Assembly: GCA_945860095.1 (NCBI GenBank)
Contig: CAMAPP010000002.1
Coordinates: 4,564-68,563, forward strand
Length of the DNA stretch: 64,000 nucleotides
Direction: 5' to 3'
DNA from: Rhizobium sp. Q54
Lineage (GTDB): Bacteria > Pseudomonadota > Alphaproteobacteria > CADEGL01
Positions 15,742 through 44,187 of the stretch are shown piece by piece (the stretch's first letter is position 1; each line of letters starts with the position of its first letter). The notes under the pieces were generated by a model. That model worked only from the letters and a program-made list of their open reading frames with translations, searched no databases and was not told the DNA's origin. Made by a program: the position numbers and the translations under genes.

Positions 15742-16779
15742 GTGAGAATTTCGTCGACCAGGGCCGGCGCTTTCTTGGGTGACGCTTGGTTGAAGTTCGT
15801 CGGAGTTTTGCTTTATGGGCCGGATTTGGGCCTGGTTCGCGAACGGGCAGCGGCGCTGGCGGGAGCCGCGCTCGGCGCTAAATCTGGGCTGTTCGGCGCG
15901 ATCGAATTGCCGGGTTCGCGGGTCAAGGATGAACCTCGGCTTTTGATCGACGAGTTATCGATGTTGGCATTCGGCGGTGGCCGGAAGCTGGTGGTTGTCC
16001 GGGATGCCGGGGATGGCGTGTGCAACGCGGTTGCGATGGCGCTGCGGTCTTGGCCGGAATTGGCCTGCTTGATCGTCGAAGCGGGCGATTTGCCGAAACG
16101 GTCAACGCTGCGGGAATTGTTTGGGGGCGATTACCGTTTGGCGGAACTCGCCTGTTATCCCGACAGCGAGGAGGTCGTTGCCGATTTGGTGCGGGCGGGC
16201 TTGGCAGGGGGTGAAGTTCGGGCGACCGAGGACGCGCTAGGCTATTTGGCGGCGCGGCTTCAGGGCGACCGCCTGGTAATTCGCTCGGAGATCGCGAAGA
16301 TTGGGACGTTCGCAGGACCCGGCGGCGTTCTCGATCTCGAGTCTGCGATCGAGATATCGGGCGCGATTGGTGAAGTCTCCATGGACGCGGCGCTTCACGC
16401 GGCATGGACCGGTCGGATTGAGGATGTCGATGCCGCAGTGCACGAATGTTTGTCTCAGGGTGTCGCGCCGGTTGCACTGATCAGAGGAGCGATCCGGAAT
16501 CTCGAGCGCTTGGTACTTGTGCGCGCGGCTGTTGATGGGGGTGCCGCGATCGACGATTCCGTCCGTGCATTGCGGCCGCCGGTGTTTTTCCGGCATGTCG
16601 AGGATTTCAAGCGCGAGGTTCGTACTTGGCCGCGCGAATCTCTGCACCGCGCGCTCGAACGCTTGCTCGAGGCTGAGGTCCGCTGCAAATCTAGCGGTCT
16701 TCCCGATGCTTCGGTTTGCGGAAGAGCGTTTCTTGAAATCGCGACGGCCGCACGGTTCCAATCGGCCGCGCGGCGTTAG
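15742..16779 (+). CDS. holA: DNA polymerase III subunit delta
   Basis: VLLYGPDLGLVRERA motif and conserved leuS-lptE-holA order. The track ORF starts at 15703. A GTG at 15742 avoids overlap with lptE. The start is uncertain. Confidence 0.8.
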   Translation: MRISSTRAGAFLGDAWLKFVGVLLYGPDLGLVRERAAALAGAALGAKSGLFGAIELPGSRVKDEPRLLIDELSMLAFGGGRKLVVVRDAGDGVCNAVAMALRSWPELACLIVEAGDLPKRSTLRELFGGDYRLAELACYPDSEEVVADLVRAGLAGGEVRATEDALGYLAARLQGDRLVIRSEIAKIGTFAGPGGVLDLESAIEISGAIGEVSMDAALHAAWTGRIEDVDAAVHECLSQGVAPVALIRGAIRNLERLVLVRAAVDGGAAIDDSVRALRPPVFFRHVEDFKREVRTWPRESLHRALERLLEAEVRCKSSGLPDASVCGRAFLEIATAARFQSAARR

Positions 16780-17648
16780 GTGAGGTGAGTTTTCGTCAAG
16801 CGCAGGACCAAGTCGTCGAGCTGCTCAAGGGATTGGTAACGGATTGTGAGCTCACCAGCCGTGCCGTTCGTTTTGAGGCCGACCTTCAATCCGAGTGCAC
16901 CGGACAATTGTCTTTCCAAAGCGGCGATGTCCGAATTTTTTTCGGACGGAGCCTTGTTGGGCGGCGGGTTTTTGGCGCTGCGCACCATGGCTTCGACTTG
17001 GCGCACGCTCATGTCGCGGGAGACCGCGATTCGTGCCAAGGCTTCCGCGTTCGGCAGGCCAATCAGCGGCCGGGCGTGTCCAGGGGAAAGTTTCTTCTCG
17101 TCGATAAGCGCTTGGATGGTGTCCGAGAGCTCGAGCAGTCGAACGGCGTTGGCGATGTGGCTGCGGCTTTTCCCTAAGATCCGCGCGAGGTGGTCTTGGG
17201 TGTGGCCAAACTCGGTCATCAAGCGGCGATATCCGAAGGCTTCCTCGATCGGCGATAGATCGGCGCGCTGGATGTTTTCGACCAGAGCGATTTCGAGGAC
17301 GTCGCGATCGCTGAGTTCGCGCACGACGACCGGGATTTCGTGAATGCCCGCGCGCTGCGCCGCGCGCCAGCGCCGTTCCCCGGCGACGATTTCATATTCC
17401 TTATCGGCCAGACGGCGGACCAGGATTGGTTGCAGGACGCCCTTTTCCTTGATCGAGTTCGCGAGCGATTCAAGTTCCGGCTCGTCAAATCTGCGCCGCG
17501 GCTGGAACGGGCCCGGGCGAAGTTGGGTTAGCGGCAGGCTACGGACGAATTTCTCCGCTTCTTGGTCCGCTGCCGGTGGAGTTTCATCGCCGAGGAGAGC
17601 AGAGAGCCCGCGCCCGAGGTGTCGGCGTTTTTGGTCGTCGGAGTTCAT
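16776..17648 (-). CDS. parB: chromosome partitioning protein ParB
   Basis: ParB/Spo0J motifs (…GERRWRAAQRAG…) and a KorB-like HTH. Its stop overlaps the convergent holA stop. Confidence 0.95.
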   Translation of the reverse strand: MNSDDQKRRHLGRGLSALLGDETPPAADQEAEKFVRSLPLTQLRPGPFQPRRRFDEPELESLANSIKEKGVLQPILVRRLADKEYEIVAGERRWRAAQRAGIHEIPVVVRELSDRDVLEIALVENIQRADLSPIEEAFGYRRLMTEFGHTQDHLARILGKSRSHIANAVRLLELSDTIQALIDEKKLSPGHARPLIGLPNAEALARIAVSRDMSVRQVEAMVRSAKNPPPNKAPSEKNSDIAALERQLSGALGLKVGLKTNGTAGELTIRYQSLEQLDDLVLRLTKTHLT

Positions 17649-18439
17649 TGCCGCAGGGCTTGTTCGCGGCGAATAACTTCGCTGGCCAGGTGGATATAGG
17701 CCTGCGAGCCGGAGCAGCGAAAATCATAGAGCAGCACCGGCTTGCCGTACGAGGGCGCTTCGGAGACTCGGACGTTTCGGGGAATAACGGTCTGGTAAAC
17801 CTTCTCGCCGAAATGCCGGCGAACATCGGACGCCACGAGATCGGAGAGGCTGTTTCGCTTGTCGAACATCGTCAAGACAAGGCCCTGGATTTCAAGGCGC
17901 GGATTGAGATTTTTTCGGACCCGCTCGATGGTTCGCATGAGGTGGCTCAGGCCTTCCAGCGCATAGAACTCGCACTGCAATGGCACCAGGACCGCGTCCG
18001 CGGCAGTTAGAGCGTTGAGCGTTAACAAGCCTAGAGCGGGCGGGCAGTCGATCAGAATATAGCTGTAATCGGCCTTGCGGTCGCGGATGGCCGCGCGCAA
18101 TCGATATTCGCGCTCCGACATCCCGACGAGCTCGAGTTCCGCGCCCGTAAGATCGATGGATGATGGAATGACGGATAGGCCGGGGATGGCCGTCGCGATC
18201 GTCACATCTGCGATTCCGCGGCGGTCGATTATGAGATCGTAGGTGCCCTGAACGCGCTGGTGTTTTGTCACGCCGAGTCCCGTACTGGCGTTGCCCTGAG
18301 GGTCCAGATCGATGAGCAAAACTTTCTCGCCGACCGCCGCCAACGCAGTTCCTAGATTGACTGCGGTGGTGGTCTTTCCCACTCCGCCTTTCTGATTGAC
18401 GATTGCGATAACGCGCGGCCCACTCGGGCTCGAATGCAT
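17645..18439 (-). CDS. parA: chromosome partitioning ATPase ParA
   Basis: Deviant Walker A motif (IAIVNQKGGVGKTTTAVNLG). Start placed at MHSSPSGPRVIAI. The track ORF extends to 18493. Confidence 0.9.
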   Translation of the reverse strand: MHSSPSGPRVIAIVNQKGGVGKTTTAVNLGTALAAVGEKVLLIDLDPQGNASTGLGVTKHQRVQGTYDLIIDRRGIADVTIATAIPGLSVIPSSIDLTGAELELVGMSEREYRLRAAIRDRKADYSYILIDCPPALGLLTLNALTAADAVLVPLQCEFYALEGLSHLMRTIERVRKNLNPRLEIQGLVLTMFDKRNSLSDLVASDVRRHFGEKVYQTVIPRNVRVSEAPSYGKPVLLYDFRCSGSQAYIHLASEVIRREQALRQ

Positions 18440-18452
18440 GGTGGCACCGGGT

Positions 18453-19082
18453 TCATGATGAATTTGGGGCATGATGGATATCTTCGATCTCAAGAACGCA
18501 CCCGTCGCGGCCGGCTTGGCTGGGGTGAATGCGTGCGGTTAGTTTCCTCTTTTTTTGAGCCAGAATCAATTCATGTTGTACCTTAGAACCCTTCAATAAC
18601 AATATATGGGATTGGGGCGCTATCAAATGGGTGACCAGATCAAGGAAGCTATCGATCTCGGCCACCGCCCTTGCGGTTATGGTCAATGCCGGTGTGGGGA
18701 CATATTCCGAAATATCGATGCTCAAGACTTGCGCCGTGGCGCCGGTGCGATGAACGACGGCACGAAGAAACGCACATTTTCGCTTATCACGCTCCACCAG
18801 GTCGATCCGGTCTTCACCAAGAATCGAAAGCACAAGGCCCGGAAAGCCAGCACCCGAACCAACATCCACTATTCGGCCGCGGTCTTTGCGCAAAAATTGG
18901 CGGAGTTGAGCGGAGTCTAAAAAATGCCTTGTCCAGAGATTAGGCAGAGTATTGTTGCCAATTAAATTTATTGATTTTTGCCATTTTGAGAGTTCTTCGG
19001 CGTATAGAGCAAGTTTTTGAGTCGTTTCACGTGAAACGTTTGCAAACTTATGAAATACAACGCTTTCTTGAACTTGCGTCAT
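18453..19082 (-). CDS. rsmG: 16S rRNA (guanine527-N7)-methyltransferase RsmG
   Basis: N-terminal …NVSRET… motif and SAM-binding loop ([11 protein letters not shown]). Position between mnmG and parA. Confidence 0.9.
19023..19038. repeat. perfect palindrome CGTTTCACGTGAAACG (copy A), inside rsmG codons 13-18
   Basis: Self-complementary 16-mer read from the sequence. It encodes (N)VSRET using the rare codons gtt, tca, cgt and gaa in a high-GC genome. Confidence 0.9.
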
Positions 19083-20995: not shown

Positions 20996-21013
20996 ATGTT
21001 TCACGTGAAACAT
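20996..21013. repeat. perfect palindrome ATGTTTCACGTGAAACAT (copy B1)
   Basis: Lies in the mnmE-mnmG intergenic region, about 50 nt upstream of the mnmG start codon. Confidence 0.9.
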
Positions 21014-21032: not shown

Positions 21033-21050
21033 ATGTTTCACGTGAAACAT
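21033..21050. repeat. perfect palindrome ATGTTTCACGTGAAACAT (copy B2), abutting the mnmE stop codon
   Basis: Second identical 18-mer, 20 nt from copy B1. The sequence between B2 and mnmG, read on the minus strand, resembles an rsmG 5' end ([10 protein letters not shown]). Confidence 0.9.
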
Positions 21051-29409: not shown

Positions 29410-30441
29410 TCATGAGGCCGCTTGCGCTAGAGGGCAGACGCTCTTGTCGGCCGGGCAAATTCGCACGCCCTCGGACGACCCGATCGGCGTTGCACCCTTC
29501 AGCGTATCGCGTACGAGGCTGGTTAGGCCGGCGATGAATTTCTCGTGCGCGGCGACCGCAGGAACCCGCGCAAATGCCGGCACGCCAACCACTTTGGCCA
29601 AGTGCCGGTATTCTTCGTCGAGTTCGACCAGGGTTTCCGAATGTTCCGACACGAACGCGATCGGCGCGACCACGATGGGCACCCGGTCTTGGGCGGCACG
29701 GCGAATTTCCTCCTCGGTCGACGGCCCGATCCATTTGAGCGGACCCACGCGGCTTTGATAGCAGACCACCCAATCCCCGGCGGCCAAGCCCAAGCGGTTC
29801 GCAATCCCTTCCGAGGTTCGCTCGATCTGCCATTGATAGGGGTCGCCGCCTTTGATCACCTTTTCGGGCAAGCCATGGGCCGAAAACAGAACGCGCGGCT
29901 TTCCGGCGAATGCGACATCGCGCATGGCCTCGGCAACGAGCTCGACTTGAGCCGCCAACCAGCCCTCGAGCCGCGGATAACAACAGACCGCGTAACTAGG
30001 TTTCACAAAACCAATCTTCGCAGTTGTACGCGCCCACGCCTTGAACGACGAGCCCGAGGTCGTGCCCGAAAATTGCGGATAGAGCGGCAGCAGCACCACT
30101 TCATCCGGATCGAATTCCTTAACGGCATCAGCTGTCTCGGCGCTCATCGGATGCCAATAGCGCATCGCAATGAATACACGCGTCTCCAGCCCAAGCGCTT
30201 TTTCCAAAGCCGCGGCCTGAAGACGCGTATTGGCAAGCAGTGGCGATCCGCCGCCGAGCTTCTCGTAGATGCCGATCGTTTTGCCCGCCCGCAGTCCGGA
30301 AATGAGCCGCGCCAGGAAGAACCGCACCACCGCCGGCACGGACAAAATCGCCGGATCGGAAAACATGTTTCTCAGGAACGGGCGAACGGATTGCGGCCGA
30401 TCGGGCGCTCCAAGATTGAACAACACGACTGCGAGCTTCAT
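29410..30441 (-). CDS. hemH: ferrochelatase
   Basis: …VVLFNLGAPD…LPLYPQFS…SAHGLPE… signature. Overlaps the hemE stop. Confidence 0.9.
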   Translation of the reverse strand: MKLAVVLFNLGAPDRPQSVRPFLRNMFSDPAILSVPAVVRFFLARLISGLRAGKTIGIYEKLGGGSPLLANTRLQAAALEKALGLETRVFIAMRYWHPMSAETADAVKEFDPDEVVLLPLYPQFSGTTSGSSFKAWARTTAKIGFVKPSYAVCCYPRLEGWLAAQVELVAEAMRDVAFAGKPRVLFSAHGLPEKVIKGGDPYQWQIERTSEGIANRLGLAAGDWVVCYQSRVGPLKWIGPSTEEEIRRAAQDRVPIVVAPIAFVSEHSETLVELDEEYRHLAKVVGVPAFARVPAVAAHEKFIAGLTSLVRDTLKGATPIGSSEGVRICPADKSVCPLAQAAS

Positions 30442-31487
30442 GCGGATTTTCCCTGGTCGCGAACGAAGCGGACGAGCTCCGCCACGTGGTCCGGCGGAGT
30501 TGCGGGTACCACCCCATGGCCAAGATTAAAAACGAAAGGCCGCGAGCGGTAAGCGGCGAGTATCCTTGAAACCTGCTCGGTCATGGCCCGCCCCCCCGCG
30601 ACGACGGCCAAGGGATCGAGATTGCCTTGCAGCACGATCTCCGCCGGGATTTCACGCGCCGCCCATGCCGGATCGACCGCCGTATCCAATCCAACCGCGG
30701 TCACCCCGGTTTCTTGGGCATAGCCGATATATTTGCCGCCAGCACCGCGCGGAAAACCGATGATTCGCGCGTCAGGAACCTCCGCCCGGACCCGCGCGAC
30801 GATATCCCGAGTGGGTTCAACCACCCAGCGTGCGAATTGATCCGGTGCCAGCACGCCTGCCCAGCTATCAAACAGCTGAACAGCATCCGCGCCGGCATGA
30901 AACTGCGCCACCAAGTGCCGGACAATCGCTTCGGACAAAAGCCGAATCAGCCGACCGAATCCATGCGGATCCGACCAAGCCCAGGTCCGCGCCACCTCGA
31001 AATCCCGGCTGGTCCGACCTTCCGTGGCATAGGCGGCCAATGTCCAGGGCGCGCCGGCAAAGCCGATCAAAGCCTTTGAGGCGTCCAGCGATTGGCGGAC
31101 CGATGCAATCGCCCTATAGACCGGCTCAAGCCTGTCAACGATGCCCTCCGCCGAGAGACTCCTCAATCCCTCAACGGACCGGATGGGTTCGAGTCTCGGT
31201 CCTTCGCCTTCAACGAACCAAACTGGAATACCAACGGCATCGCAAACGACCAAAATGTCCGAAAAGATGATCGCGGCATCGAGATCGTAGCGCGCGATCG
31301 GCTGCAGCGTGACCTCAGCGGCCAAGTCTGGGCTATAGCAAAACTCTAGAAAATTGCGTGTCTGGGCACGGACTTTGCGATATTCGGGCAGATATCGCCC
31401 GGCCTGCCGCATGAGCCATAGGGGCGGCGGGCTTCGCCGCTTGCCATCGAGGGCTTCGACGACAGCCGAGACGCGATCACAAACCAT
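30438..31487 (-). CDS. hemE: uroporphyrinogen decarboxylase
   Basis: …PPLWLMRQAGRYLPEY… N-terminal signature, about 349 aa. Confidence 0.95.
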   Translation of the reverse strand: MVCDRVSAVVEALDGKRRSPPPLWLMRQAGRYLPEYRKVRAQTRNFLEFCYSPDLAAEVTLQPIARYDLDAAIIFSDILVVCDAVGIPVWFVEGEGPRLEPIRSVEGLRSLSAEGIVDRLEPVYRAIASVRQSLDASKALIGFAGAPWTLAAYATEGRTSRDFEVARTWAWSDPHGFGRLIRLLSEAIVRHLVAQFHAGADAVQLFDSWAGVLAPDQFARWVVEPTRDIVARVRAEVPDARIIGFPRGAGGKYIGYAQETGVTAVGLDTAVDPAWAAREIPAEIVLQGNLDPLAVVAGGRAMTEQVSRILAAYRSRPFVFNLGHGVVPATPPDHVAELVRFVRDQGKSA

Positions 31488-31875
31488 GGCTCGACTATCC
31501 TACTTCCCTTTAGATAATTGAATCTTTTTTTGAAGGGTAGTGGTGATTGGTCGTGTGCATAGCGGGGCTTCCCAGTCATCCACATGACTGTGGCTCCGCC
31601 AGGCCGCGCCGGGCCATGTGGCGAGCTTGTCCATAAACCGCCGGCAAGTTCGCGTGGGAGCGCAATTTGCTGTGTGGATTGCGTGTAAAGGACCGTGTCG
31701 AAAGATGGGGATGAAACTTGGTGCGGGACATGTCCCGGATATTGCCCGCGTGGTATCATTTTATCAGACATGGGACAGTTTCGCCCAAAACTCGAGATGG
31801 CACACCGCTCCAAACCCGTAAGGATTTCACCCCCACGTCGTTCCCGAGTTTGCGGCGCGGCCTCTGGATAACTCG
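31488..31875. other. candidate chromosomal replication origin (hemE-proximal intergenic region)
   Basis: 388-bp non-coding gap containing an AT-rich stretch (CTTTAGATAATTGAATCTTTTTTTGAAGG, ~31508-31536). It carries at least four DnaA-box-like 9-mers: TCATCCACA (~31576), TTGTCCATA (~31627), TGTGGATTG (~31673) and TGGATAACT (~31864). The gene context matches the hemE-Cori arrangement known from Caulobacter and relatives. Confidence 0.5.
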
Positions 31876-41621: not shown

Positions 41622-42245
41622 GTGCCGATATCTCGCCGCAAATCACCAGGCACGCCGCAAGGTCCTCGGCACGAGGATGATTTCGCTTTGTGGCGGCAGG
41701 CTACCCGCGACATCCGTCCGCTCGACCGCGCCGAGCCGATGAGCGAGAAAAAGACGCCCCAATCTTCTGCCGGCGCGACGGGCGGGGGGTCTCCGAAACC
41801 GACTTTCGCGCCCGATGTTTCGAAGGCGCCCGATGTTTCGAAGGCGCCCCGTATGCCGAAGACGATGCCCAATGCCGGGCTCCTAGCCCGGCCGGCGCCG
41901 GGTCCAAGCCTTGAACTCGATGCGGCAACGGACCGCCGATTGCGGCGCGGCCAGTTGGCGATCGAGGGTAGGCTCGACCTCCACGGCTATACCCTGGCGG
42001 AAGGCTATGCCGAACTTGCAGAATTCATCGCCAATTCCCGTGAAGCGGGCCGGCGCTGCCTGCTTGTGGTCACGGGGCGGGGGGATGTGGCGGGCGAGCG
42101 CGGTGTGTTGCGCCGGAATCTTCCGCAATGGCTTGCTGGGCCGTCCTTACGCCCCTATGTCCTGGGCGTTTCGCCCGCGCAGCCCAAACATGGTGGGCTT
42201 GGGGCGTTTTACGTCCTGCTTCGCAAGGGCCTCCGCCACCGATGA
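41622..42245 (+). CDS. Smr-domain protein (small MutS-related endonuclease domain)
   Basis: C-terminal Smr domain (…LDLHGYTLAEGYAELAEFIANS…LLVVTGRG…). Internal DVSKAP tandem repeat. Confidence 0.8.
   Translation: MPISRRKSPGTPQGPRHEDDFALWRQATRDIRPLDRAEPMSEKKTPQSSAGATGGGSPKPTFAPDVSKAPDVSKAPRMPKTMPNAGLLARPAPGPSLELDAATDRRLRRGQLAIEGRLDLHGYTLAEGYAELAEFIANSREAGRRCLLVVTGRGDVAGERGVLRRNLPQWLAGPSLRPYVLGVSPAQPKHGGLGAFYVLLRKGLRHR
41791..41826. repeat. 2 x 18-bp perfect tandem repeat (CCCGATGTTTCGAAGGCG) inside smr, with a degenerate third unit
   Basis: Read from the sequence. It encodes PDVSKAPDVSKAP. Confidence 0.85.
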
Positions 42246-42631
42246 CACCGTTCGGACAGAAATTGCGCGAGCTTCGCGCCGCGCGCGGCACGACCCTGAA
42301 ACAGATGGCGGCGGCACTCCATGTCACGCCCGCCTACCTTTCGGCCTTGGAAAATGGCCGGAGGGGAAAACCTCGCAAGGGCCTGGTCATGCAGGTTTGC
42401 GCGGTTCTCGGAATCATTTGGGACGATGCCGAGGATCTGGTTCGCCTGGCGCGGCTATCCGACCCCCGGCCCAAGATCGACACCGCCGGCCTGAGTCCAA
42501 AGGCGACGGAGCTGGCCAATCGACTGGCGGGAGAAATTGCCCGGCTGACCGAACCCGAGCTGAGCGCGATGCTTGCGACCCTGCAACGGGGGGAGCCGAC
42601 TGTCGGTGGGCTCAAGAAGATAAAACAATAA
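42242..42631 (+). CDS. XRE-family helix-turn-helix transcriptional regulator
   Basis: HTH_3 motif (…LRELRAARGTTLKQMAAALHVTPAYLSALENGRR…). ATGA overlap with the smr stop. Confidence 0.8.
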   Translation: MTPFGQKLRELRAARGTTLKQMAAALHVTPAYLSALENGRRGKPRKGLVMQVCAVLGIIWDDAEDLVRLARLSDPRPKIDTAGLSPKATELANRLAGEIARLTEPELSAMLATLQRGEPTVGGLKKIKQ

Positions 42632-42879
42632 ATATTTCAAAGACATAAAGAAGATATATGATATTATACTTCAATTTTATTAAAAAAGAGATGGATTTTC
42701 CCGAATATTTTTGCTCAGTTGATATAGTTATAAACAAGTTATCCACAAATATTCATCAAAACCGTTAACTAATCTAATTTATCAATACGTCAAACTAACT
42801 ATTTCATATAATGTAAGTTTAATTTATTTACCATAAACATGAGAAAACATATTCACAGCGCCGTGAATCCGCTAGTGAA
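42632..42879. other. extremely AT-rich (~22% GC) non-coding island with a perfect DnaA box TTATCCACA (~42739-42747)
   Basis: By hand count there are about 49 G+C in about 219 nt, against about 65-70% GC in the flanking genes. No ORF of 60 aa or more. It sits in the convergent gap between the XRE gene and hslU. Confidence 0.85.
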
Positions 42880-44187
42880 TCAGAGTATGAACCGGCTGAG
42901 ATCCGTGCTCTTGGCGAGTTCGCCGACTCGGCTATCGACGAAATCGGCATCGATGGTAATTGCCGTGCCCGGTTGGTCGGAAGCGGTGAAGCTCACATCC
43001 TCCAAAAGGCGTTCGAGCACGGTGTGCAGGCGGCGGGCACCGATATTCTCGACGCGCTCGTTGATCTCGGCGGCCAGAGTCGCCAGCCGATCGATCGCGT
43101 CGGGGCGAAAATCGAGCGTCACATCCTCGGTCTTCAACAGGGCAACATATTGTTTGATCAGGCTGTTTTCCGGCTCCGTCAGAATCCGAATGAAATCTTC
43201 CCGGCCCAGGGCAGTCAACTCCACCCGGATGGGCAGGCGGCCCTGCAATTCGGGCAGCAGGTCCGAAGGCTTTGCCAGGTGGAAGGCGCCCGAGGCGATA
43301 AACAGCACATGATCGGTTTTGACCGGGCCGTGCTTGGTCGAGACCGTGGTGCCTTCGATCAGGGGCAAGAGATCGCGCTGCACGCCCTCGCGGCTGACAT
43401 CGGCGCCGGCACGCTCGCCGCGGGCGCAGATCTTGTCGATTTCGTCCAGGAACACGATGCCGTTCTGTTCCACGGCGGCGATCGCATCCTGCAGCACCTT
43501 CTCGTCGTCGATCAGCTTGTCGCTTTCCTGCGCCACCAGAACGGCGTGGGAATCGACGACCTTGAGCTTCTTGGTGCGGGTGCGTCCGCCGAACGCCTTG
43601 CCGAGCATTTCGTTCAAGTTCAGCATGCCGACTTGGGCGCCCGGCATGCCCGGGATGTCGAAGGTGGGTAGGGCGCTAGAGCCCTCCGCCACGGCGATTT
43701 CAATTTCCCGATCGTCAAGCTGTCCCTCGCGAAGCATCTTGCGGAATTTCTGCCGGGTCTCCGCCGAGGCGCCGTCGCCCACCAAGGCATCGAGCACCCG
43801 GTCCTCGGCGGCCAATTCCGCGTTCGCGAAAACCGATTTCCGCAATTTCTGTCGGACCATGGCGATGGAGACCTCGAGCAGATCGCGTACGATCTGCTCG
43901 ACATCGCGTCCGACATAACCGATTTCGGTGAACTTGGTCGCCTCGACCTTGATGAATGGCGCCTCGGCAAGGCGCGCCAGGCGCCGCGCGATCTCGGTTT
44001 TTCCGACCCCCGTGGGACCGATCATCAGGATGTTCTTCGGCAGAACTTCCTCGCGCAACGGTTCGGGCAATTGCATGCGTCGCCAGCGGTTGCGGAGCGC
44101 GATCGCCACCGCGCGCTTAGCCTTGCCCTGACCGACGACGTAGCGGTCGAGCTCGGAGACGATTTCGCGCGGGCTGAACGAGCTCAT
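42880..44187 (-). CDS. hslU: ATP-dependent protease ATPase subunit HslU
   Basis: AAA+ Walker A motif ([16 protein letters not shown]) and about 435 aa. Confidence 0.95.

Follow-up and report, generated by a model that had tools for sequence, protein, structure and literature searches.

Control of DnaA by chromosomal sites outside the origin is understood mainly in Escherichia coli, through datA and the DnaA-reactivating sequences (DARS), and in Bacillus, through clusters of DnaA boxes. In Alphaproteobacteria, DnaA control is ascribed to HdaA and the regulatory inactivation of DnaA (HdaA/RIDA), to proteolysis, and to CtrA. Here, we describe an AT-rich island that carries a pair of DnaA boxes in the convergent gap between an XRE-family regulator gene (xre) and hslU of Rhizobium sp. 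Q54. The island lies within a 64,000-nt stretch of contig CAMAPP010000002.1, which we refer to as the window, and was compared with loci and contigs of relatives, denoted by codes such as L202.

The datA locus of E. coli is a 187-bp intergenic element near oriC, situated downstream of a transcription unit that reads through (PMC10380432, PMC10950094). Box pairs separated by 2 to 3 bp, typically a 7/9 match beside a perfect box, are the preferred in vivo target of E. coli DnaA, as determined by chromatin immunoprecipitation sequencing (PMC11317965). DnaA bound at a box can also block RNA polymerase, a finding that later papers attribute to Schaefer and Messer (1988/89).

The island is the lowest-GC stretch of the window. 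Between positions 42632 and 42850, 49 of 219 nt are G or C (22.4% GC), and the complete gap (42632-42879) has 25.8% GC, compared with 63.3% for the whole window. In 100-nt windows, GC content drops from ~0.66 to 0.20-0.28 across the island and is back up by 42900; the minimum is 0.20, and the runners-up reach 0.32-0.35. The exact count reproduces the composition that a first-pass annotation of this DNA had estimated (~22% GC, 49 G+C in ~219 nt), while its figure of ~67% GC for the surroundings is above the measured value for the window. As that annotation also stated, no open reading frame (ORF) of 60 or more amino acids lies inside the island, and the flanks of the gap, identified with Pfam, are indeed the XRE regulator and hslU. 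The main features of the island are the following:

42632..42848, no strand: AT-rich island core, 217 nt, ~22% GC, fast-evolving except for blocks A to D
42728..42736, + strand: DnaA box a, TTATAAACA, a 7/9 match to TTATCCACA and one mismatch from TTWTNCACA
42739..42747, + strand: DnaA box b, TTATCCACA, perfect, 2 bp after box a and in the same orientation

Together, the two boxes (TTATAAACA, 7/9; spacer ag; TTATCCACA, 9/9; 42728-42747) form a predicted "double DnaA box," that is, a DnaA dimer site. The same arrangement is found in L202 and L001, and in L205 it reads TTATCAACA-ga-TTATCCACA. Box b, which had been pointed out in the first-pass annotation, is the single perfect DnaA box in the 64 kb, and the relaxed consensus TTWTNCACA matches just one further site in the whole window; dinucleotide shuffles of the window's island give a chance of ~0.04 for one such match. 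The weaker box relatives reported alongside it fared less well: TTATCAATA is present at 42779 but is not kept in relatives. A further weak DnaA-like 9-mer, ATATTCACA, is located on the + strand at 42849-57, inside a putative hslU terminator.

The gene order around the island, with smr-xre facing hslU-hslV, is kept in 63 of 80 alphaproteobacterial loci, about half of which have a spacer of -11 to 66 nt that is almost always GC-rich. Homologous spacers were found by contig look-ups through the XRE protein, which yielded eight distinct versions of the island (189-257 nt, 26-39% GC) in a clade of uncultured Alphaproteobacteria. All island-bearing genomes have 63-68% GC, and the island is the lowest-GC stretch of each locus compared. 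The eight versions fall into two groups:

Near group: the window, L202, L205, and L001; XRE identity 94-96%, spacer 248-257 nt, 26-30% GC
Far group: L207, L214, L212, and L210; XRE identity 77-83%, spacer 189-229 nt, 36-39% GC

Just outside the clade, L002 (XRE identity 76%), L003 (71%), and L216 (77%) have GC-rich spacers of 16-63 nt. Given these short GC-rich spacers in the nearest outside lineages, we infer that the island arose once in the ancestor of the clade and has been kept since. It is an inherited spacer and not debris private to this genome. The first-pass annotation had reasoned that a GC-rich spacer in close relatives would leave only insertion debris; such spacers do occur in distant relatives, but the close relatives keep the island.

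All eight versions of the island contain at least one exact TTWTNCACA match on the + strand and none on the - strand (per-sequence chance of a match 0.001-0.07 in dinucleotide shuffles). Some far-group islands carry arrays. L207 has four boxes in an 11-nt register (TTTTCCACA-gt-GTATCAACC-gg-TTATGGGCG-aa-TTTTCCACA), the box span of L214 is likewise 33 nt, and L210 has three boxes in the 11-nt register. The L212 island (698-886) is exactly 33 nt (3 x 11) short between two direct TTTTCCACA positions, in comparison to L207 (1497-1719) and L214 (2561-2783), and recombination between repeated boxes would produce such a loss. In an unbiased k-mer comparison, the four far-group islands have just two 9-mers in common, TTTTCCACA and TTTCCACAA, along with the reverse complements of both. 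By analogy, the box pair and the arrays have the anatomy of cooperative head-to-tail DnaA binding.

The double box itself is widespread. A metagenome scan with the 21-mer TTATAAACAANTTATCCACAA from block B returned at least 120 matches, nearly all in unrelated genomes of 26-46% GC, and neither hslU nor xre lies beside the 21-mer among the metagenome matches listed, which added no relatives to the comparison. Because the 21-mer occurs in unrelated metagenome contigs, often beside further boxes, it appears to be a generic double-box motif. The matches (L081-L200) include a highly recurrent family of ~35% GC, in which the 21-mer is located between DnaA-like boxes (L081, L088, L089). Presumably, abundant AT-rich taxa have their origins or dnaA promoters on these metagenome contigs.

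The boxes have survived while 4-fold degenerate sites diverged by 45-50% between the near and far groups (chance mismatch is ~60%) and by 22-31% within the far group. At much shorter distance, the window and L202 are ~99.3% identical over 5.8 kb, with a 4-fold divergence of 11/725 (1.5%). Their islands are 85.5% identical: 26 of 147 columns outside the conserved blocks differ (17.7%), as opposed to 5 of 105 inside the blocks. The L202 island allele is identical in three independent assemblies, and the island tree agrees with the flank tree, with divergence saturating near 33%. In the near-group alignment, 48% of columns are invariant overall, and five blocks stand out:

42692..42711, + strand: block A, TGGATTTTCCCGAATATTTT, 0 differences from L202 in 20 columns
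42728-748, + strand: block B, the double DnaA box, which holds the most conserved 20-mer
42804..42813, + strand: block C, TCATATAATG, with a perfect TATAAT at 42807-12; 9/10 columns invariant
42823..42841, + strand: block D, TTTATTTACCATAAACATG, conserved in the near-group alignment
Adjoining the hslU stop: block E, the hairpin region of the near-group alignment

The most conserved 20-mer of this alignment is TTATAAACAAGTTATCCACA (42728-42747), in which 17 of 20 columns are invariant. The spacing between blocks C and D is fixed in all four near-group sequences. One possibility for block A is a decayed DnaA box (TTTTCCCGA), with the upstream far-group TTTTCCACA as its homolog. The block also provides the left arm of an imperfect inverted repeat of 15 nt, the right arm of which is at 42840-42854 (42703-17 with 42840-54, 87%); this long-range repeat was rejected as an RNA stem or a terminal repeat because it shows no covariation and its position is internal.

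Conserved boxes, the sole motif kept in all eight versions, are combined here with rapid turnover of the DNA around them, and this hypervariability around invariant boxes is the most unexpected result of our analysis. The island is a divergence hotspot between the window (42513-42912) and L202 (1700-2100), and the raised zone begins in the last ~10 codons of xre, which are AT-rich and already variable. The hotspot could be due to hypermutation, short-tract recombination, or diversifying selection.

We tentatively favor the interpretation of the island as a DnaA-binding module that is clade-specific and close to the origin, within an xre/hslU spacer that is AT-rich and otherwise unconstrained, and consider it a real possibility that falls somewhat short of probable. 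Of the DNA-unwinding or DnaA-titration role proposed in the first-pass annotation, the DnaA half is the best supported, with the boxes as the sole motif kept in 8/8 versions, and the origin role is unsupported. Several observations weigh against a DnaA-binding module. Overall, the island's rate of change equals or exceeds the neutral one; most of the sequence would thus have no specific role, and it diverges more rapidly than synonymous sites. The two good boxes and one or two weak ones of the window would provide a small titration capacity, and an open frame that runs through the boxes in the four near-group sequences could add to box conservation there. An IHF-like sequence, YAANNNNTTGATW, occurs in three of the four far-group islands and in none of the near group. 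This reading also comes from sequence comparison, and the box preference of the clade's DnaA may differ from the consensus used. Finally, we know of no extra-origin chromosomal DnaA-regulating locus in Alphaproteobacteria, although our literature search was not aimed at this question.

The gap adjacent to hemE is the classical position of alphaproteobacterial origins. As the first-pass annotation had noted for its hemE-linked origin candidate, hemE and the adjoining gap are located 11 kb from the island:

30438-31487, - strand: hemE, 11 kb from the island
31488..31875, no strand: gap between hemE and DUF299 (Kinase-PPPase), 55% GC, the better oriC candidate

The hemE gap is without a perfect DnaA box. 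Its boxes, TCATCCACA at 31576 and TCTGGATAA at 31863, are imperfect; an AT-rich stretch lies beside hemE, and the genes on both sides of the gap point away from it. In comparison with L001, identity is 66% for the island core, 74% for 4-fold sites, and 85% for the hemE gap. The far group keeps several blocks of the hemE gap, including box-like TCCAC and GGATAAC, and fragments of the DnaA box (ATCCACA, TTATCCA) are the only 7-mers found in every near-group island and also in every near-group hemE gap. The island, in contrast, is not located beside hemE, has all of its boxes on one strand instead of in both orientations, and is not strongly constrained. Because the island is clade-restricted and fast-evolving with boxes on one strand, and the hemE gap is more constrained, the island does not appear to be the chromosomal origin, and the hemE-DUF299 gap appears to be the better oriC candidate. 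The cumulative GC-skew minimum falls at ~35 kb, nearer the hemE gap, with a weak signal dominated by gene strand; raw skew and skew at third codon positions both follow gene strand and are too weak to place an origin. Among near-group genomes, the hemE gaps of the window (31488-31875), L218 (9614-10000), L221 (208-594), and L219 (9612-10000) are 85-90% identical, and the box-like motifs kept in them are TCATCCACA/TCATTCACA, TGTGGATTG, and TCTGGATAAC.

Among the described systems, the island is similar in layout to datA, the E. coli site of datA-dependent DnaA-ATP hydrolysis (DDAH). Both are short and intergenic (187 bp for minimal datA and 190-250 nt for the island), and both are near the origin, at the 3' end of a transcription unit reading in, with few boxes in AT-rich DNA. 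The island is 11 kb from the hemE gap and follows xre, a gene without a terminator. However, datA needs boxes 2, 3, and 7 plus one site for integration host factor (IHF) at a fixed spacing (PMC10380432), whereas two good boxes of like orientation are present in the window, and an IHF site is not recognizable there. The IHF consensus WATCAANNNNTTR has no match in the window, and the far-group YAANNNNTTGATW sits ~35-42 nt after the last box. Because the window lacks an IHF site and has too few boxes, membership in the datA family is not established. The two elements have no sequence homology, the host of the island is an alphaproteobacterium, and the likeness is one of sequence layout.

The double boxes of the E. 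coli DnaA regulon (e.g., upstream of purH) are built almost like the pair in the window, with an upstream 7/9 box, a 2- to 3-bp spacer, and a downstream perfect TTATCCACA (PMC11317965). Those sites are described as targets of transcriptional regulation, whereas the island is located between two gene 3' ends and has no supported promoter. At the asnC terminator of E. coli, RNA polymerase is halted by DnaA bound to a box that marks the end of the transcription unit, as later papers attribute to Schaefer and Messer (1988/89); the orientation of the island boxes relative to xre is constant, and a roadblock at xre is proposed by analogy. The low-affinity arrays of oriC and the Bacillus basal unwinding system resemble the island in their head-to-tail boxes, 2-bp spacing, and downstream AT-rich tract, and strong boxes bracket weaker ones in L207 and L214. 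The island differs from them in being away from the hemE position, in evolving fast, in having a poor and non-conserved trio, and in having far fewer boxes. DARS1 and DARS2 of E. coli are likewise DnaA-box clusters outside the origin, but DARS needs boxes I and II head to head (PMC10380432). The island boxes are all head to tail on the + strand, an orientation that excludes a DARS-type function.

The genes at the ends of the gap, and the putative terminator in its right-hand 40 nt, are the following:

42242..42631, + strand: xre, XRE-family helix-turn-helix (HTH) regulator, 129 amino acids, Pfam HTH_31/HTH_3
42880..44187, - strand: hslU, convergent with xre and followed by hslV; assigned by Pfam, with an intact C terminus (...DLSRFIL)
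42842..42880, - strand: putative hslU intrinsic terminator, consisting of a hairpin AUUCAC-U-AGCG / CGCU-GUGAAU (42851-42880) and then a U-rich tract (42842-42850)

If the boxes act as such a DnaA-binding module, DnaA would bind cooperatively, as a dimer or oligomer, to the boxes spaced by 2 bp. Because the site is 11 kb from a hemE-type origin, it would be duplicated almost immediately after initiation and could, from then on, serve near the origin as a sink for DnaA or a platform for its inactivation, in a datA-like manner. The bound complex would also be a roadblock in the path of the smr-xre transcript. The ATG of xre overlaps the stop codon of smr, a Smr-domain gene (ATGA), and the promoter and terminator scan found no intrinsic terminator-like site 3' of xre on the + strand; without a block, the smr-xre transcript would continue into hslU in the antisense direction. 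Downstream of the boxes, the AT-rich flank may ease bending, melting, or nucleoid-protein binding. In its fullest form, the island would be an independently evolved datA analogue, a DnaA roadblock that ends convergent transcription, and a local mutation hotspot through DnaA-bound, easily melted DNA, a combination that we consider unlikely. If DnaA-bound melted DNA were a mutation hotspot, the 12-fold excess divergence around the invariant boxes would be explained.

The inverted repeat ATTCAC (42851-56) N6 GTGAAT (42863-68), reported in the first-pass annotation, is part of the putative hslU terminator. The hairpin begins inside the hslU stop codon. RNAalifold predicts 10 pairs on the - strand, with A-U -> G-U and G-C -> U-G exchanges among relatives, followed by AUGUUUUCU, and this is the only supported helix on that strand. 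Support for a terminator is weak: the hairpin is not in the single-sequence minimum free energy fold, the fold of the stretch has z = -1.6, and the terminator scan gave no flag.

Alternatively, the island may be a neutral relic, that is, AT-rich foreign DNA that entered the permissive convergent gap of the clade ancestor and has been decaying since, with the boxes as functionless passengers. In this reading, the boxes came with the foreign DNA, e.g., from a plasmid or phage origin or a promoter, and the DNA may or may not be coated by a xenogeneic silencer. The xre/hslU gap is a recurrent insertion site: in other lineages it is an insertion hotspot, including loci with inserts of 0.7-5 kb. Other Rhodospirillales carry foreign cargo in this gap in L005 (6372-7429), L008 (6372-9605), and L035 (6381-8706). 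In the Nisaea loci L005 and L008, the cargo is an HNH endonuclease plus a MerR-like HTH gene; L008 has an AraC-like regulator and a transporter in addition, and L035 contains DUF3800 and a MerR-like gene. As other lineages carry such cargo at this very position, a foreign origin of the island is plausible as history. The lowest GC content in every locus and an evolutionary rate above that of 4-fold sites would also fit a relic. At near-saturated neutral divergence, however, a functionless 9-mer should be gone, and the box is exact in 8/8 versions, on the same strand and in register. We also found no similarity to phages, plasmids, viral contigs, or cargo genes. A blastn search of the islands against plasmids and phages returned nothing, viral scans with blocks B, D, and A gave chance-length matches only, and a blastx search against the cargo proteins of the same gap gave noise (E >= 0.04, in a database of five proteins). 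No other copy of the island exists in the window or the loci compared. The ends of the island lack the terminal inverted repeats expected of a miniature inverted-repeat transposable element or an insertion scar, and the only long inverted repeat is internal; with no terminal repeats, second copy, or phage or plasmid similarity, the scar of an excised element suggested in the first-pass annotation is not borne out. On balance, we regard the relic as the main rival but an unlikely explanation for the conserved boxes.

We consider it quite unlikely that the island is a DnaA-controlled promoter for an unannotated transcript, producing either a + strand RNA that starts after the TATAAT at 42807-12 and runs antisense into the hslU 3' end or an RNA from 42640-42667. 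Blocks C and D are nearly invariant with fixed spacing, a perfect TATAAT lies ~60 nt downstream of the double box, and one sigma-70-like site is found at 42640-42667. Moreover, most DnaA-bound sites outside the E. coli origin are described as regulatory targets (PMC11317965). In contrast, the near-group alignment has no conserved -35 or TGn element, the position of the TATAAT is not kept in the far group, and the promoter and terminator counts of the scan both equal the shuffle expectation. There is also no conserved downstream ORF, no Rfam match, and no conserved + strand RNA structure. Specifically, the alignment of relatives has a + strand consensus of -1.3 kcal/mol, the tRNA scan found none, and Rfam searches at the gathering cut-off and at E <= 10 gave no credible match (best E value 0.19, outside the island). 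The near-CtrA-like string of the first-pass annotation, TTAACTAATCTAATT, reads TTAA-N7-AATT instead of TTAA-N7-TTAA and is not conserved, L202 having TTGACTGATCTAATT in its place; the CtrA box TTAA-N7-TTAA has no match in the whole window.

An auxiliary or alternative origin unwinding module, composed of DnaA boxes, trio-like triplets, and an AT-rich unwinding element, is very unlikely in our assessment. The AT-richest 60-95 nt lie 3' of TTATCCACA, an orientation that fits: in E. coli, the AT-rich DNA unwinding element is on the same side of box R1 as it is in the island. The head-to-tail arrays also resemble an oriC arrangement. In five of the eight versions, (Y)TC ATC ATC starts within 1-3 nt of the end of the last box; on that strand it is (.T.) repeated three to four times, which corresponds to the permissive trio pattern (.A.){3,} as it appears from the opposite strand (PMC8287927). 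The trio rule that we applied requires three or more NAN trios (consensus 3'-GAT-5') on the correct strand, no farther than 16 bp from a box. The triplets after the last box of the window are ATA TTC ATC, which follow the permissive rule only and do not fit GAT. The five-version pattern reads 3'-TAG-5', not 3'-GAT-5', and is absent from L205, L001, and L210. Furthermore, the element is confined to one small clade and is far less constrained than the hemE gap, which has its own boxes, its own AT-rich stretch, and genes pointing away on both sides.

The weakest alternative, a gene for a small protein of ~25-36 amino acids (...DFPEYF...IINKLST...) whose coding constraint would explain blocks A and B, is highly improbable: the 36-codon ORF at 42658-42768 has the coordinates and translation given in the first-pass annotation, the frame runs uninterrupted through blocks A and B in each of the four near-group sequences and ends at nearly the same point, several L205 changes are third-position or conservative (CCC>CCG, TAT>TAC, ATA>ATC, AAG>AGA), and L210 has an ATG ORF in the same phase with FINRL, but L205 and L207 have no ATG, GTG, or TTG start, the frame is broken in L207 and L214 (in-frame TGA in L214), variable columns are distributed over codon positions as 11/11/17 of 26 (not significant), the phase in which the box motif would be translated differs between the two groups (LST versus FPQ), an antisense frame of similar length is also open, and gene callers called nothing here on any contig. 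Without a conserved start or frame, a conserved + strand structure, or an Rfam match, the small RNA or small-protein locus proposed in the first-pass annotation does not hold up.

The window as a whole is the origin region of an alphaproteobacterial chromosome. Its left part contains parB-parA-rsmG-mnmG-mnmE, with three parS sites, and then rho-hemJ-hemH-hemE up to the hemE-DUF299 gap. Right of the gap follow DUF299-maf-aroE-coaE-dnaQ-secB and then lutABC-smr-xre, the island, hslU-hslV, and hisB. Relatives show the same gene order around the hemE gap (L218, L219).

The parS cluster is located at 19023-19038, 20997-21012, and 21034-21049. Two perfect copies of TGTTTCACGTGAAACA flank the junction of the mnmG start and the mnmE end, and a palindromic copy with two mismatches lies in the first codons of rsmG, beside the mnmG end. 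The genes parA (17645-18538) and parB (16776-17723) are just beyond the cluster. Between 18453 and 22773, the genes rsmG, mnmG, and mnmE and a gene of 120 amino acids have a GC content of ~0.39-0.62 in 200-nt windows, below that of their neighbors, and the low-GC patches coincide with the gene junctions that carry parS. A foreign island was rejected as the source of these patches at 18.5-23 kb, which are the rsmG-mnmG-mnmE genes with parS sites. GC skew is strongly negative, down to -0.37, in mnmE and the genes to its right. Within smr, the N-terminal low-complexity part (41829-41912) is 79% identical to L202, versus 99-100% around it, and this divergent patch probably reflects indels or repeats.

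If the boxes of the island are unoccupied, the locus would be an ordinary old insertion scar at an insertion hotspot. As a short, deletable element with consensus-strength boxes, 11 kb from an origin that has imperfect boxes only, it is a directly testable candidate for DnaA binding outside the origin. The contrast between its invariant boxes and their hypervariable surroundings, in genomes that are 99% identical elsewhere, is a natural experiment on selection in such a site.

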